Virus record (IMG/VR): IMGVR_UViG_2859805564_000001
Origin: a virus
Lineage: Duplodnaviria; Heunggongvirae; Uroviricota; Caudoviricetes
Length of the DNA stretch: 64,000 nt
Reading direction: 5' to 3' (one strand)
Positions 3,001 to 9,000 of this stretch are shown here, piece after piece. The position numbers were made by a program. Each line of letters begins with the position of its first letter. The first letter of the stretch is position 1.

Positions 3001-6000
3001 GCTGAGATATAATCGTTGTACGCCTCTTCAGCTTTTTCGCCAGTGAGTGCTAGTTGGGCTTCTTTGGGTAAAAAAAGGCTGCTCATAAGCAATGGTTTAT
3101 CGGGGAACATGCTGATAAGCTCCTGCGCCCGATCATCAATCCATTTATCCTTTTCATCCTGAATTTGCTGATTAATCCAGCGACGCTCCTCTATGCGGTC
3201 GCAGGTGAGGTATGCGTTCATGGCGGAACTCCTGATTCCGGTTAATGCATTAAATTAATTTGTCGGGAAAGCTGACATACAGGGCAGTTACATTCTTCCT
3301 CCTGCTCCTTAGCGAAGAAATATGCAGCGGCCTGTAATGCGATATCTTCTGGATGTTCCGCGATAAACATAACATTGCCTTCCGTATCAATAACAGAAAT
3401 AGCCTCATCAGACAGGACGACAAAATAGGCGATGATTTTATCATCCATAAAAACTTCTCCCATTATCGTTCCTGCTGGAGTTACGACGCTTTTTACATTG
3501 ATATTTATTTTTTGATTGAGCATGATATTTCCCTTCAGGCTGGTGAGATTAACGGTTGGCCTTTATTGTTCAGGTAAACTTCTATTGCATCTGAGATAAT
3601 GCGAATTTTTTCAATCAGTGAATGTGCGTAAAGTGCATTATTAACGTTCGCTGACGCCATGTAATAACGCCCGTTGTAAAGAATTGCTGTGCCGGGTTTA
3701 ACGTCCTCGCGAGAAACTAATGCGGTTCCGTAGTGAGGTTTGAGCATGACAAATCCTCCGGTTAATTAATCCAGATATTTAATTTAATCCCCGATATGTG
3801 GTCGGGGATGGGGTTAATTAAAGATTTACGTTGAAACCAAAGCGGGAAGACTTTTCTGATGTACGGGAAATATCCAGCAATTTACGGCGCATTTCTTCCG
3901 TCAGATGCTTGAAGGCGTTAAATTCGGCGACAGCGGCGTCAACGTTATAGCCTTTGCTGTGTAGCTCATTGAGGATGCGCATAGTTGGGCTTGGCATATC
4001 GAAGAGCACGGAAGCATCAAGGCTGATAACCTTGCGATCAACATAGTTCATCGTGGCGTAGGGATGGTTATCTGAGAACCACGAGAGAGGGTAGTTGATA
4101 GATAGCGTTGATTCTGGAAGCTGAAGTTGTTCTGGGATTTTTTGACTGAAATAGCAGTCTTCCAGTTTTTCGAACACTTCCCACGCCCGATCGGTTTCGA
4201 GCATTTTTGCGTGACGGGCTGCGCCGCGTTCTGTCCAGAGGATGAGGGAGCGAACGTTACGGGCGATTTTCACAGAAGGTCTTAAAGACATGCTGTGCTT
4301 AAATTCCCGCAACTCCTCATTCTCAAGTAAAAAGTAGTGCTTACCGATAACAAATCGTCCAGAATTCCGATTGAAATTTTTTCGGATGTAATCTGGTTCT
4401 GTGCCATATAAGCTGGCAAGAAGCTCTGTAGTCACCACAGGTATATTACTAAATGAAATTATGGAGAGGGACTCCACGGAGATGGTTTTCATGCTTTGCG
4501 TCCTACTTGATATTTTGATTTACCCCTTTTGAGAGGGTGACCGGGCGCTCAAAACCGCAAGTAGTCGGCGGGCATATTCCCATTGCTGGTATTGTATTAG
4601 CCGCACGCCCGGTCATAAACCAAGAAGACTGGACACAAAAAAACCGCATGTCTGTCGGGCGCGGTAACCGCTACTTGCTAAGGTGTTTTGAGCACCATGA
4701 GGCAGAATATATCCCCGTTAATGCAGCATTGTCAAACGATCTGTTCTTTAAAGACTTAACGAGAAGCCTTTTCGGGAATTTCGATCTGACAGTCTTGAAA
4801 TATCCTGTAGCGTGCGGCGCATTTCTTCCGTCAGATGCTTGAAGGCGTTAAATTCGGCGACAGCTGCATCGACGTTATAGCCGTTACGACGTAATTCATT
4901 AAATATGCGCATTGCAGGGCTTGGCATGTCGAATAAGACGGAGGTATCAAGCTGCAATGTATTTCTATCAACATAGTTCATCGTGGCATAGGGGTGATGC
5001 TCTGAAAACCACGATAAAGGGAAATTGATATTCATCGCAGGATAAGACAGGGCCAGTTGTTTCTGTTCCCATAGTTGTTTTTCCATGCGATCGAATTCAG
5101 CAATGTAGGCTTCTTTGAAAGCGGCGGCTTTTTTGCCAGTGAACCCCATCACCAGGAAAACGAATCCGTTTTTGGTGATTTGGTACATTGGGCGTTGCTC
5201 GCCTTTGGCGTCGGTGTAGGTAACGTCCTCAAAATTGAGGGCGTTAAATTTCTCTGAGCATTCAATATTTGCAATGGCGCGCAATACGTTATCGTGTCGC
5301 TTGCAAAAATATTCGGCAACGGCAAAGGACGTAGTAACAGCGCGACCATTGGAAATGGTGATTTCAGGTTGAGAAAGGACTGGGATAGTAGCCATAATGG
5401 CAGCCTCCTTGATTGGTGATTGATAACCACCGCTGGAGGTAGCAAGCTCGCTGGCGGTGGACTGTACAGGGTTGCTACAACTGGCAATCAAGGGAACCAG
5501 CCCGACCGAAGTCGGCCCCATACAGCCCACCATTGATAAGATGTGCGTGTATGTCGATACAAAAAAAAGACGCTGGCGCGTCTGTATCGCCTCGATTGTC
5601 AGCGGGGTAGCAATCCCGACACCCGTTTTATGAGGTGTTCGCCAAATATAGCCCCGACATCACACGCAGTCAATACCGTCCTTTCTCAGAAACGCTTTGG
5701 CGGTGCCGCCTGCACCCCAAAACATTCCCTGTATTGGTCAGCGCCAACTTCCTGCCAGTGTTGCCCGTTCTCACGCCGTTCTCGCTCTCGCGCGGGGATA
5801 CTCTCTCATCGACCGGATCGCACCCGATGATACAGCACGTTTACGTGTAGGGGTCTAAACAGGTCATTGACGCTGTAAAGCTCCAGATTGTTAAAGAGCA
5901 TTTTGCGGCGGGTTAAGTCGCGCCGTACGACTGATTTATGTAGCCCTGTGTAAGGGCGCGATGTTTCTGGCTTGAAATAAATATAACTTGCGGTGATTTT

Positions 6001-9000
6001 CATGTAAATACCGTTGGTGCTTTTTAAGGGCGAGAAATTATTACTTAACTGATTTTTAAAGTGATTTATTTTTTAAGGGGGCAGATAACAGGAGGGGATA
6101 TGCAAAGAAAAACCCGGCGCATGGGCCGGGCTATTTATCTGGTCCTGTTCTCATTCAGTAGAGTAGGGGCCAAGAAATCGCACTCCGTTGAAGTGAATAA
6201 GATGAGAAGGTGCATCAGCCACCCATACCTCTGTTTCCCATGCGATTTCACCAAGATATCGCCCCATGATGGAGCGATTTGGAAAAGCGGTCACATAGAC
6301 AAGTCCGGCTGTTGATCCGGCAAACAGCCTGGCAAGCTCAGCATGCCGCTTCCCATCAACCGGTCCATGACTGGTGACAGACTCAACCAGTAGCAGCCAG
6401 TTTTTCGCAGTAAAATGTAGCACCACATCTGGCATTTTACCGTGTGAATCCACATCAACACCTAGCCCGGCCAGCAGTGGAGCGTCGAAGTAGCCCCACT
6501 TTTCGCCAGTGTCGCCAGCATAGACCAGCACGCTACCCGGAGCAAAACGTGGGGCGAAGTCCTCTATTATGGCACGGATAAGTTCGCTGTGCTCGCCGGG
6601 ACTGAGGGTTATTTGCTGGCCCGCAGCAATTTCAACAGGGATACGATTCTGTTCGCGCTCCTTAGCATAGCGGGTAACCAGCGTTTCACGCTCGGCTAAA
6701 TAGGTTGCAAGGCTATCGTGCCATGCCGGGCTGCCGAAAGTGCGTAGCATGGACAGAGCAGCAGGTTCGATCTGATAAACAGCCTTCGGGCTGTTCACTG
6801 GGCGATCGGGCTTGTCCGGATTGTAGAGGGCTACTCCAGCAGCGCAGAACTGATGCATAGACTGGCGGCGGAATGTCTCACGAGTATTGGGTGCGTAGAC
6901 CTTGCCGTAGTGCTCCCGAACCCAATTCATGATTGGTGTAATGCCCACAAGCGGATTTTCCGCGTCGGCCCATGCTTTTCCCGGTGTGAGGTTCAGGAGT
7001 GCCAGCAAACACAAAGCAGAACGCTCATTCTGCTGCGCTCTGGGCAGGCCTAAGGATGCTATAATTTGCTGAGCGGCCTCAATATAATCATTTTGGTTGT
7101 TCATGCAGTCAGAGCTCCTAGCTTAGCGTCAATATGTTCTTGCGTGAGAGTTTCTTGTTGCATAGCCCACTTGCCAAGCTCTATCAGAGTGTCACGGCTT
7201 GGGTACTTAATCATCTTGAGGTCGGTTGCATTGACCTGTGTATGCCCGTTGAAGCGACGGAAGTACTTATCCACTGCGGTAGTGTTCAGGAACACGGCCA
7301 AGCCACGGGCCAGCGCCTCGGGTAACCCATGTTTGTTCTCATGAAACACGTTCATGTGATTTTCAAATCCCAACACTGAATACTCACTGAAGGTAGCAGG
7401 ATCAACGACGCTTGCTACCACTCGGCGCTTTTCCTCCTTCGACGAGAAACGACGCACCACACAATAAAAACCGTTCGGGTAAAGCCACTTTTCTGTCTCG
7501 TCGTTGCGCATGATTGCGTTGGGTTTCTTCAAACCTTCCACAGGCCAGACAGTGCTACTCATACTCAAATGGCTCGGGTAGATCAGGGGAACAGTTCCTT
7601 CTTCTGGCATGCTGCGCAAATGAGCTTTCAGTCGGAAATCAACTATCGGTCCGGTCGATACCTTCACGCCAATATCAGCCAGCGAACATTGTACGGCAGA
7701 TGATAACTCAATGGTGCTTTTCTCGAGCGTGGTCGGCACATGAATAAACCGCTCCGAATCGTCCGGGTACACAATCTGGTCAAATGGGTGTTCGTAGGTG
7801 ACCAGGTCAAAAAAGCTATCATCGGTCGAAGTTGTGACTGTAACAGCCTCCTGACGGCCTCCACGCTCCAGGCGGATGATAATATTTTCCTGCAACACAT
7901 CGTCATCCCTGAAAGCTTTGCTACGTGATTCGAACAAATGAATATGGCGGATTGCTGCCCGCTCAAGTATGAAATTACGGAACGGACGGTAATACGGTCC
8001 GTTGCAGAAACTACGTGGGATTATGGCCACTATCTGCCCGCCAGGTGCAACCTCACCTACAGCCAGTGCAACAAAGGCGGAATACAGATTTACCGTCTCG
8101 ATACCGACAGTGCGAAGAGCCTGCCGGTGGGCTGACTGGCTATTGATCTTCTTGTAAGGCGGATTAAGTATTGCATGGGTATAACCTCGATCCTGTAGAC
8201 CTTCGGCGGTTGCCAGCTCAATATAATCCCCTTCGATGATGCGGGGCGTCACTCTCCTGTACCCGGTTAAGTGCTTCGCAAGGTGACCACACAGCTTTTT
8301 GTCGATTTCGTAGGCTGTTGCCTCGACAGACTCAAAGCCAAACTCGCCAACCAGCCAACGGTCGAGGAAGGCGCAAGACAGTGCGCCTAAACCAGCGCCT
8401 GCGTCCAGTAGACGGCAAGTTTTCATTGTGCTCGGTGGAAACAAGGAGGCCATAAAACGGGCCACGCCAGAAGGCGTCATGAACTGGCCGAACTCTGCTT
8501 TGTGTTTACGCGCGGTACGGGGAGACAGCTCGCGACGCACGCTGTCTGCGACGTCTAGCTTTTGAAGCATAACTAATCCTCTTTACGTGGCATGATGATG
8601 CCAACGTGCTTTTGACATCCTCCACATTCTTCAGGCGTGAAGGATGTCAAATCACTCTGTGAGCTCAATCAAAAGTCTCATCATTCCACTGCGATTTGAT
8701 GACCTTTCCGACAAACTGGCAGTTTTCGTTACACTCAATCATGTCGAATCGTGGGTTGAGCGGCTCCAGGTACGCTTTACCGCTCTCACGAATGAATCGT
8801 TTGAAGGTAAATTCATCGCCGTTCATTCGGGCCACGCAAAAATCGCCATCCTCGATTTCCCGTTCAGGGTCAACGAGTATCAGCATACCTTCAGGGAAGC
8901 TGGGTTTACCACCCTGCGGTGCGGTCATTGAATGCCCCTTGACCTCCAGCCAGAACGACCTGTCACTGGCTTTTGTGGTGGTGGAGATCCATTTAATCGC

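Follow-up and report, generated by a model that had tools for sequence, protein, structure and literature searches.

How are the early-left genes of a lambdoid phage switched on when no N antiterminator is encoded at their head? The question is raised by a 64,000-nt stretch of tailed-phage DNA (IMG/VR record IMGVR_UViG_2859805564_000001; hereafter the window, meaning the whole stretch that was analysed), and in particular by the 755-bp interval (5396-6150) that separates a Rha-family gene from a restriction gene. An initial annotation had found no recognisable N in this interval, describing it as holding only two minus-strand terminators and a weak 65-codon open reading frame (ORF). The absence of N is correct and was previously known, but the picture of a near-empty gap is wrong, for besides these features there are a promoter, a structured leader RNA preceded by a boxA, and two small RNA (sRNA) genes recognised by Rfam. 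We interpret the interval as controlling the early-left operon of an N-less lambdoid Stx phage and supplying its leader, and this leader would bring about antitermination independently of N via Nus factors, a reading to which we assign a probability of about 0.6. The novelty lies in the boxA-RNA leader; the IsrK/C4 module, like the absence of N, is already known.

Among Stx2 prophages, the window belongs with the Oslovirus ("Eru1") group and is of the same type as TL-2011c, P13374 and phi191. Positions 4700-7200 are 96-98% identical to phi191, TL-2011c, P13374 (O104:H4) and Shigella phage Ss-VASD, and the 755-bp interval shows 100% identity with prophages of several Shiga toxin-producing Escherichia coli genomes. 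The minus strand carries, in order, cI, a methyltransferase, a restriction enzyme, the interval, the Rha-family gene, a second antirepressor, kil, gam, recT and exo, while the opposite arm encompasses cro, the 'Eru1' helicase and primase genes, ninG, ninH, Q and stx2. Absence of N, cII and cIII has been stated for this phage group (Llarena et al., PMC8044961), and Grande et al. 2014 (PMC4122784), with reference to Beutin et al. 2012, reported the same of phi191 and P13374. Eru1/Oslovirus Stx phages, which include those of the 2011 O104:H4 and 2006 O103:H25 outbreaks, have also been reported as unusually unstable lysogens (PMC8044961).

A conserved boxA-RNA leader at the head of the early-left operon

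Directly 3' of the predicted early-left promoter (pL), the interval contains a boxA followed by a multi-helix RNA, with the following elements:

5888..5900, minus strand: boxA TGCTCTTTAACAA, about 72 nt past the predicted pL start, fitting the consensus GYTCTTTAANA
5752..5862, minus strand: core of the conserved structured leader RNA, 111 nt, defined by covariation and a covariance model
5862-5858 with 5756-5752, minus strand: closing helix P1 (RNAalifold)
5852-5850 with 5766-5764, minus strand: helix P2, CCC/GGG (RNAalifold)
5847-5836, minus strand: hairpin P3 with an A-rich loop, CACG-UAAA-CGUG (RNAalifold)
5830-5806, minus strand: hairpin P4, its loop containing GCGAUCCGG (RNAalifold)
within about 5800-5772, minus strand: variable hairpin P5, which covaries

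The boxA, judged against the published consensus (PMC5725501), is the sole exact match to TGCTCTTTAACAA in the 64-kb window. A search for nut-like signals located an exact boxA (5900-5888) but no short boxB hairpin a few nucleotides after it. The 13-nt boxA of the window (TGCTCTTTAACAA/TGCUCUUUAACAA) is that of rrn operons, and the APSE-7 leader agrees with the rrn leader over 17 nt, TGCTCTTTAACAATTTA. Fold and covariation were computed on 24 diverse sequences, in which 97.4% of alignment cells are paired, compared with 30-46% when the partners are slid. Compensatory changes occur at nine pairs and amount to 39 cells, versus 9.9 +/- 2.4 in shuffles. Hairpin P5 often holds a nested GAGA tetraloop hairpin. 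Covariance-model scores range from 132 to 192 bits across members, the window element (175 bits) being among the highest. The GCGAUCCGG motif is exact in all members retrieved, as the retrieval patterns themselves demanded. No Rfam 15 family matches the boxA-RNA leader at E <= 10, and it appears to represent an undescribed RNA family; no description of the element was found in the incomplete body of literature searched.

The same element is found in the early-left leader of phages phi80, HK225, KO-TP1, Edno5 (Edwardsiella) and APSE-7 (Hamiltonella). Window positions 5713-5900 show about 94% identity to the phi80 early-region record, between its annotated O-L region and a gene labelled N, and also match HK225 just 3' of its annotated early-left promoter, as well as a Klebsiella phage. 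The Edno5 and APSE-7 elements are more distant, each with a boxA and each located 3' of a cI-type repressor at the head of the early-left genes. A first pattern scan of IMG/VR identified 109 viral contigs with 79 distinct elements, and a second scan with a boxA-free pattern returned at least 52 further distinct ones. All 52 elements listed from the boxA-free scan have a boxA with exactly one mismatch, 78-84 nt upstream of the P4 loop, whereas a boxA at no more than one mismatch occurs in 6 of 585 control random segments of the same loci. Promoter-like sites lie within 130 nt upstream of boxA in 62% of distinct contexts (95/154; median distance 66 nt), against 7% of controls (33/462). Judged from sequence, well over 100 prophage contigs of Enterobacterales conserve boxA and RNA in a promoter-proximal position. 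The first 100 genome loci tested included 18 Enterobacterales genomes with the element, and the species-representative genomes passing the covariance model are exclusively Enterobacterales (Enterobacter, Kosakonia, Kluyvera, Huaxiibacter, Xenorhabdus and Yersinia). Whole-genome pattern matches in GC-rich phyla were discarded, being mostly chance hits that fail the covariance model.

Each phage carries one copy of the element according to the covariance model, and no right-arm (nutR-like) copy was detected by BLAST, by boxA search at up to 2 mismatches or by the covariance model. From pR (9421) as far as tR' (14745-14764), the terminator after Q, the right arm likewise showed no strong intrinsic terminator, so that no right-arm copy would be needed. 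In 249 complete E. coli genomes carrying the element, among them DH10B and NEB5-alpha with their phi80 remnants, no annotation marks it, and the HK225 and APSE records leave it unannotated although other RNAs are annotated there. About 150 E. coli genomes with the window's phage type keep it at 99-100% identity. The phi80 remnants of cloning strains (DH10B, NEB5-alpha, XL10-Gold and others) carry the boxA-RNA leader at 95% identity.

No recurring protein family was found immediately 3' of the element among 83 loci. Ten sampled first downstream genes, including phi80 'N', belong to different PHROGs of unknown function or to none, with the exception of one helix-turn-helix regulator, and none of the ten matches an N family. 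Phi80 'N' lacks an arginine-rich motif, and the window encodes no relative of it. This lack of a shared partner favours an element working with host factors alone, a partner protein encoded elsewhere in the phage being possible. Many members (loci L017, L036, L037, L055, L092, L119 and others) have a strong Shine-Dalgarno sequence and a mini-ORF of 2-3 codons within about 20 nt 3' of the element, for instance GAGGAGTAATGATTATGAAGCAGTAA (M-K-Q-stop); these recall the lambda bar minigenes and are absent from the window.

Absence of N and status of the 65-codon ORF

The lack of a recognisable N was borne out by all approaches used: no N-like protein was found among the ORFs of the interval, in profile scans, by tblastn or in published accounts. 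An arginine-rich N-terminus of the N type is absent from all 17 ORFs of at least 20 aa in 5396-6150, and the 65-codon ORF (hereafter ORF65) and the three longest plus-strand ORFs match no antiterminator family in Pfam or PHROGs. When the entire 64 kb were searched by tblastn with lambda N and phi80 'N' as queries, the best E value was 0.17.

ORF65 is present at 5806..6003 on the minus strand and lacks, as had been described, an N-terminal arginine-rich motif. The suggestion that it might encode a divergent or very small antiterminator is in our view barely credible. It does sit at the N position, is moderately basic (HKSVVRRDLTRRK) and has a marginal PHROG match (E = 0.038) to a family of unknown function. 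Its start codon (ATG 6003), however, lies within pL, between the -35 and -10 hexamers, with no Shine-Dalgarno sequence apparent upstream by eye; there is no Pfam match and no significant PHROG match. Its basic residues and its MLFNN stretch are translations of boxA (MLFNN) and of the sequence upstream of boxA, and its stop codon coincides with the end of helix P4. Moreover, the frame is not conserved, meeting a stop 5-22 codons from boxA in 14 of the 24 family members. A frame broken in 14/24 relatives in which the RNA helices covary points to constraint on the RNA and not on a protein, and ORF65 was rejected as a gene.

The early-left promoter and candidate operators

The restriction-modification genes occupy the place of lambda rexAB, so by lambda logic pL and the left operator (OL) would be expected just past them, inside the interval. 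The region from the repressor to pL is organised as follows:

8665-9378, minus strand: cI, encoding a LexA-type CI repressor (annotated records)
7101-8570, minus strand: Eco57I/Alw26I-type methyltransferase (annotated records)
6151-7104, minus strand: BsuBI/PstI-family restriction enzyme (annotated records)
6111..6132, minus strand: intrinsic terminator of the cI/methylase/restriction operon, with an 8-bp stem containing 6 G-C pairs, then TTTCTTTG
6083..6101: imperfect operator-like palindrome AGATAACAGGAGGGGATAT, candidate distal OL, with 3 mismatches to the right-operator (OR) palindrome, weak alone
5980..6008, minus strand: early-left promoter pL, TTTACA-17-TATATT, from a consensus scan (10/12 matches), with a predicted start near 5972
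5981..5999: operator-like palindrome ATATAACTTGCGGTGATTT, candidate OL1, overlapping the -10 hexamer and spacer of pL and differing from the OR palindrome at 2 positions

A minus-strand terminator had been proposed at 6104-6130, and a terminator-like hairpin with its T-rich tract is indeed found there, at 6132..6111. It begins 19 nt past the restriction-gene stop, in the position of lambda tIMM, and reads as a terminator on the plus strand too. In a three-way alignment, the window pL coincides with the promoter annotated in HK225 and with the pL of phi80, which falls within the O-L region annotated there. In the sister phage F004, a matching terminator is located at the same place; the sequence upstream of its leader differs, yet it retains the terminator, an AT-rich stretch and, at the pL position, TTGACT/TATTAT with a different spacer, and identity with the window resumes a few bases past the -10 hexamer. 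Such a pattern, a divergent promoter next to a shared leader, is the look expected of an immunity-specific pL/OL beside a common leader.

The cI-cro region contains a perfect 19-bp OR palindrome, ATATCACCTTTGGTTATAT (ATATNACCNNNGGTNATAT, perfect copy at 9382-9400), and candidate OL1 shares TGCGGTG and GTTATAT with the cI-cro intergenic region. Their position, flanking and overlapping pL, makes these operator-like sites candidates for OL, on statistics that are weak. The lambda layout invoked by the initial annotation holds for the immunity operon, for pL/OL after it and for the nut-like leader that follows, and is broken only by the lack of an N gene. The type II restriction-modification pair (6151-8570) is complete; standing between cI and pL in place of rexAB, it is presumably co-expressed with cI in the lysogen.

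A direct repeat of about 45 nt (approximately 80% identity) occurs at 5937-5985 and 10137-10185, both on the plus strand, one copy covering the initial 35-40 bases transcribed from pL and the other lying immediately upstream of the gene at 10209. Its 16-nt core, CTGTRTAAGSGCGMGA, is also present at 6020-6035, so that copies flank pL. Given direct copies in two divergent operons, RNA made from pR would show partial complementarity to the 5' end of RNA made from pL; protein-binding sites or a leftward promoter are other possible explanations of the repeats. The first ~50 nt of the pL transcript (CCATCGAAACGAAACATCGA.AGCTGAG.GAAGTTAGCCAGCGGCG) are common to HK639 (34330-34385), phi80, HK225 and KO-TP1, and HK639 shares with phi80 just these first ~50 nt of the leader. 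This 5' module leads into a putL-like RNA in HK639 and into the boxA-RNA in phi80, HK225 and KO-TP1, that is, into two different candidate antiterminator RNAs.

An IsrK/C4 module precedes the Rha-family gene

An Rfam scan of the window revealed three full-length minus-strand matches above gathering thresholds, two of which form, with a promoter and a target region, a compact module between the boxA-RNA leader and the Rha coding sequence:

5645..5673, minus strand: promoter-like site P_isrK, TTGACT-17-TATATT, its -10 ending 7 nt before the first IsrK base (5638)
5563..5638, minus strand: IsrK-family sRNA, RF01394 (61.8 bits, gathering threshold 50; model positions 1-77 of 77)
5450..5537, minus strand: C4-family antisense RNA, RF01695 (77.4 bits, gathering threshold 45; model positions 1-87 of 87)
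5405..5445, minus strand: C4 target region in the Rha leader, with a2 UUGCUAC (5445-5439) and b2 CAAUCAAGG (5415-5407)
4748..5395, minus strand: Rha-family regulator/antirepressor (Phage_pRha, 5e-32; PHROG regulator and antirepressor families)

The second minus-strand terminator of the initial annotation, at 5561-5582, exists as a hairpin (stem 5583-5568, followed by eight T/U residues), but it belongs to the IsrK sRNA gene and is not a free-standing operon terminator. The near-identity with phi80 stops at about 5720-5730, just before P_isrK, at a clear mosaic junction, and the records of phages F004 and F039 annotate an 'isrK Hfq binding RNA' and a 'C4 antisense RNA' at the homologous place.

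IsrK carries the decoy/target sites a1 UUGCUAC (5613-5607) and b1 CAAUCGAGG (5598-5590). In C4, b' CCUUGAUUG (5493-5485) lies in the loop of hairpin 2 and a' GUAGCAA (5478-5472) in the adjoining single strand; both are exactly complementary, in the correct antiparallel order, to a2/b2 and to the IsrK a1/b1. Exact motif complementarity was used here because RNAduplex energies of C4 and its target, compared with shuffles, ignore intramolecular folding and were uninformative. For translation from ATG 5395, Rha has the Shine-Dalgarno AAGGAGG (5411-5405), which b2 overlaps. On this complementarity Rha is predicted to be gated by C4, in a known kind of antirepressor gate, the P1 immI/Gifsy-1 isrK-anrP type. 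The left boundary of the interval at 5396 is supported by that strong Shine-Dalgarno and by the use of ATG 5395 by the phi191 annotators, but it faces rival starts: the Rha ORF is open back to ATG 5533, with the RefSeq start at 5521, and the extension runs in frame through the C4 gene.

The Gifsy-1 region isrK-orf45(STnc1160)-anrP-isrJ presents the same order of promoter, IsrK with terminator, C4-family RNA and antirepressor gene, and both loci score above the Rfam gathering thresholds for isrK and C4. Two upstream in-frame AUGs in the C4 region of the window correspond to the Gifsy-1 orf45 starts. The two antirepressors, in contrast, are not homologous (AnrP versus Rha, BLASTP E = 2), the upstream ORF is fused in frame to Rha in the window and separate in Gifsy-1, the module lies within the pL operon in the window and 3' of Q in Gifsy-1, and the downstream RNA is of the sRNA-Xcc1 family in the former and isrJ in the latter. 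The IsrK-C4 module thus behaves as a portable RNA cassette, found in two operon positions and gating non-homologous antirepressors. In Gifsy-1 (locus L317, 33400-34330), the Rfam isrK and c4-a1b1 matches overlap and are followed by a C4 match, which identifies IsrK as the a1/b1-bearing RNA and STnc1160/orf45 as the C4 homologue. Experiments showed the homologous P_isrK to be active in Gifsy-1, and its transcripts partly pass the IsrK terminator unaided (PMC4825925). The read-through mRNA is translationally silent and is activated in trans by the short IsrK; the authors of that study liken IsrK and STnc1160 to the P4 seqA and CI RNAs (PMC4825925).

The logic is identical to that of P1/P7 immI (a1 b1 - c4 - a2 b2 - icd - ant), in which RNase P cuts the antisense RNA out of the transcript that also bears its target; the window also resembles immI in the pairing of a'/b' with a2/b2 over the ribosome-binding site and in the upstream a1/b1 copies. 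Work on the P1/P7 C4 mechanism reportedly goes back to Citron and Schuster in 1990 and Biere and colleagues in 1992. Unlike immI, the window has no separate ORF between C4 and the Rha start, and hence no icd-type gene; its a1/b1 sites are carried by a separately terminated sRNA (IsrK), and its immunity repressor is a LexA-type CI, compared with C1 in P1.

Proposed function of the leader RNA

These elements can be assembled into a tentative scheme for the switch. In the lysogen, CI would shut off pL, and transcripts from P_isrK would mostly end at the IsrK terminator (t_isrK); read-through would give C4, which would mask the Rha ribosome-binding site as in P1 immI and Gifsy-1, with IsrK able to titrate C4. 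Upon induction, polymerase starting at pL would transcribe boxA and the structured RNA, which may recruit NusB/NusE and other host Nus factors and/or bind polymerase, producing a termination-resistant complex in which N plays no part. Resistant in this way, the pL transcripts would get past t_isrK, the polarity imposed by C4 and an untranslated, Rho-sensitive leader of about 580 nt, and so reach kil, gam, recT and exo. Of the alternatives to N put forward by the initial annotation, RNA-based antitermination has thereby gained a candidate, a boxA and a conserved structured RNA directly 3' of pL whose function is predicted, and separate promoters for the recombination genes also have candidates from sequence, in P_isrK (5673..5645) and a promoter at 4735..4706.

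The leader RNA was compared with the three known kinds of signal that it recalls. It occupies the same position as lambda nutL, in the promoter-proximal pL leader just past the immunity operon; its boxA should likewise bind NusB/NusE, and its expected action would be on RNA polymerase for the whole operon. Unlike lambda, the window has no N gene and no short boxB 8 nt past boxA, carrying a 111-nt multi-helix RNA instead, and it holds a single left-arm copy with no nutR equivalent. The lambda boxA is the weaker CGCUCUUA, that of the window being the rrn consensus. The element accordingly shares the boxA consensus with nut sites but differs from them in having no boxB, no N and a single copy. 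The putL/putR sites of HK022 and the 'putL-like' RNA of HK639 are likewise cis-acting structured RNAs that start the early-left transcript of a lambdoid phage without N, and by analogy the window element could act without a phage protein. The put RNAs begin at the transcript 5' end, span about 70 nt with two stem-loops, contain no boxA, are independent of Nus factors and have a right-arm copy (PMC9378689). Their action on RNA polymerase involves its beta' zinc-binding domain and no phage protein. The window element, in contrast, starts about 70 nt past the transcription start, is always accompanied by boxA and is single-copy. Candidate homology to put was rejected: BLAST against the HK022 early region and the covariance model yielded nothing, and the HK639 putL-like RNA differs in sequence and scores only 7 bits with the covariance model (E = 9, chance level). 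Having no similarity to put, a boxA and a position away from the 5' end, the element does not belong to that class.

Its third counterpart is the rrn leader (boxB-boxA-boxC, with NusA/B/E/G, SuhB and S4), with which it shares the exact 13-mer TGCTCTTTAACAA; like that leader, it would be independent of N and dependent on host factors. Unlike rrn, the element is phage-borne, and its flanking RNA is probably unrelated to rrn boxB/boxC. The rrn complexes mainly counter Rho; the window element might in addition act on intrinsic terminators such as t_isrK. Resembling nut and put by position and the rrn leader by its boxA, the element is best filed as a cis-acting early antitermination signal of putative function. 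The stronger proposition, that boxA and the 111-nt RNA constitute a further class of early antitermination signal in phages, the third beside nut/N and put, namely a self-sufficient RNA acting with host Nus factors or polymerase and no phage protein, we advance only tentatively, as it could well prove wrong. If it is true, a wide Enterobacterales prophage family, including phi80, APSE and the Eru1/Oslovirus Stx2 phages of O104:H4 and O103:H25, would use this third signal, and the switch-on of the early-left operon in these N-less phages would be explained. Were the leader an N-independent antiterminator, it would also represent a newly recognised natural means of Nus loading, found even in cloning strains through their phi80 remnants, and a compact candidate part for terminator-proof expression.

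Several observations weigh against antitermination by the leader. This function is deduced from no more than position, boxA and conservation. Complexes of the rrn boxA type act mainly against Rho and not against intrinsic terminators. In a crude scan, intrinsic terminators were not enriched 3' of the element (35/67 loci in the sense direction versus 47/67 antisense), so bypass of intrinsic terminators is not the family-wide reason for the element, and its general target, if it is an antiterminator, is more likely Rho. Phage phi80 and most members carry GCTTTTTAACA, one deviation from the boxA consensus, and this C-to-T position belonged to an inactivating double mutation in the suhB boxA (PMC5725501); boxA/Nus complexes can moreover repress, as in the suhB leader (PMC5725501). 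The phi80 gene labelled 'N' stands right after the element, which makes a protein partner possible for some members. The operator assignment is also statistically weak, with 5 matches in the window where 1.9 would be expected.

That phi80 gene bears on the idea that boxA and the structured RNA form an enlarged but conventional nut site, read by an unrecognised N-analogue encoded elsewhere, candidates being the 98-aa phi80 'N' and an arginine-rich ORF of unknown function at 9708-10001 (phrog_852). The succession of boxA and a hairpin with an A-rich loop (P3) recalls boxA-boxB, and N-like proteins can be encoded elsewhere, on the right arm (mEp021 Gp17, PMC11893012). Yet P3 lies about 40 nt from boxA, not about 8 nt, and within a larger fold; the 83 loci have no downstream protein family in common; and the ten sampled neighbours, phi80 'N' among them, match no antiterminator family, phi80 'N' itself having neither an arginine-rich N-terminus nor a homologue in the window. 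Phages phi80, HK225, KO-TP1 and Edno5, furthermore, have a cII-like gene after cro in place of ORF 9708-10001. On balance we regard an enlarged nut site as unlikely, though worth keeping in view. A similarly low standing, and no higher, falls to a negative or sensory leader, be it for suhB-like Nus repression, for RNase processing or RNA stability, or for riboswitch-like sensing, with the recombination genes expressed from P_isrK, the promoter at 4735 and terminator leak. The internal promoters at 5673..5645 and 4735..4706, the partial unaided passage of the Gifsy-1 IsrK terminator (PMC4825925), the capacity of boxA to mediate repression (PMC5725501), the lack of terminator enrichment across the family and a fold as complex as a riboswitch aptamer would all fit such a leader. 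What speaks for antitermination instead is that the element takes exactly the nutL/putL position at the head of a long operon in all lineages examined, and that these phages have no other early antitermination device (PMC8044961, PMC4122784). The genes that follow are also unrelated between phages, which speaks against a translational leader for one particular gene and favours a role in transcription across the operon.

The element might finally be an inert remnant in this phage, left when a phi80-like pL-N region lost N upon insertion of the IsrK-C4-Rha cassette, as the ~94% identity of 5713-5900 to the phi80 leader and the mosaic junction at ~5720-5730 before P_isrK would allow. We consider this very improbable: the element is intact, its 175 bits being as high as those of any member, its boxA is nearer the consensus than that of phi80, it is kept at 99-100% identity in the ~150 E. 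coli genomes with this phage type, and the family as a whole is under structural selection. N-independent antitermination by the leader remains the preferred reading, and it offers a concrete, widely distributed and experimentally accessible candidate for this process in Stx phages and phi80. What had been noted as a missing N becomes a testable map comprising a pL site, an RNA possibly replacing N and an antisense circuit gating antirepressors.

A second antisense module and neighbouring features

The third Rfam match belongs to a tandem antisense module located between Rha and the ORF6N antirepressor gene (within 4440-4760) in the early-left operon:

4503..4735, minus strand: tandem antisense module comprising a promoter, a target-bearing segment and a c4-like RNA
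4735..4706, minus strand: second-module promoter, TTGACA-18-TATATT (11/12 consensus)
4614-4531, minus strand: c4-like RNA of the sRNA-Xcc1 family, RF02221 (79.6 bits, gathering threshold 53, full length)
3818-4492, minus strand: ORF6N antirepressor (ORF6N domain, Pfam)

The sRNA-Xcc1-family RNA is complementary to the upstream sequences GCUCAAAAC and GCAAGUAG, and its target CAAGUAG (4509-4503) adjoins the ribosome-binding site of the ORF6N antirepressor. No terminator was called for this module, in which just a weak hairpin precedes a U7 tract. From sequence complementarity, each antirepressor seems to have its own antisense gate, the two RNAs differing in specificity, and such gated antirepressors could trigger induction.

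Three database 'proteins' in the region (within 4503-4649, 5396-5533 and 5806-6003) are probably translated RNA genes. A 48-aa 'antB2 antirepressor' (phrog_35956) overlies the sRNA-Xcc1-family RNA; the Pfam Phage_ASH match to residues 1-56 of the long Rha ORF, together with the RefSeq start at 5521, overlies the C4 RNA; and ORF65 overlies boxA and helices P1-P4. If this is true, the 'Rha/Ash' architecture discussed for other Eru types (PMC8951638) may in part be a similar artefact.

On the right arm, the cII position after cro is occupied by the following ORF:

9708-10001, plus strand: basic 97-aa ORF of unknown function (phrog_852)

The ORF contains the arginine-rich stretch KGNRARRSANTRLR (KGNRARRSANTRLRVYVQKYARASRG) and is labelled CII in one phage record. 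It is the sole candidate noticed in the window for an unconventional RNA-binding regulator. Right after its stop codon lies a palindrome with 17-bp arms (10008-10042; TTAGTTGCGCTAGAAAT A ATTTCACATGCAACTAA), followed by TTTCCTG, which could be a weak tR1-like terminator or an operator.

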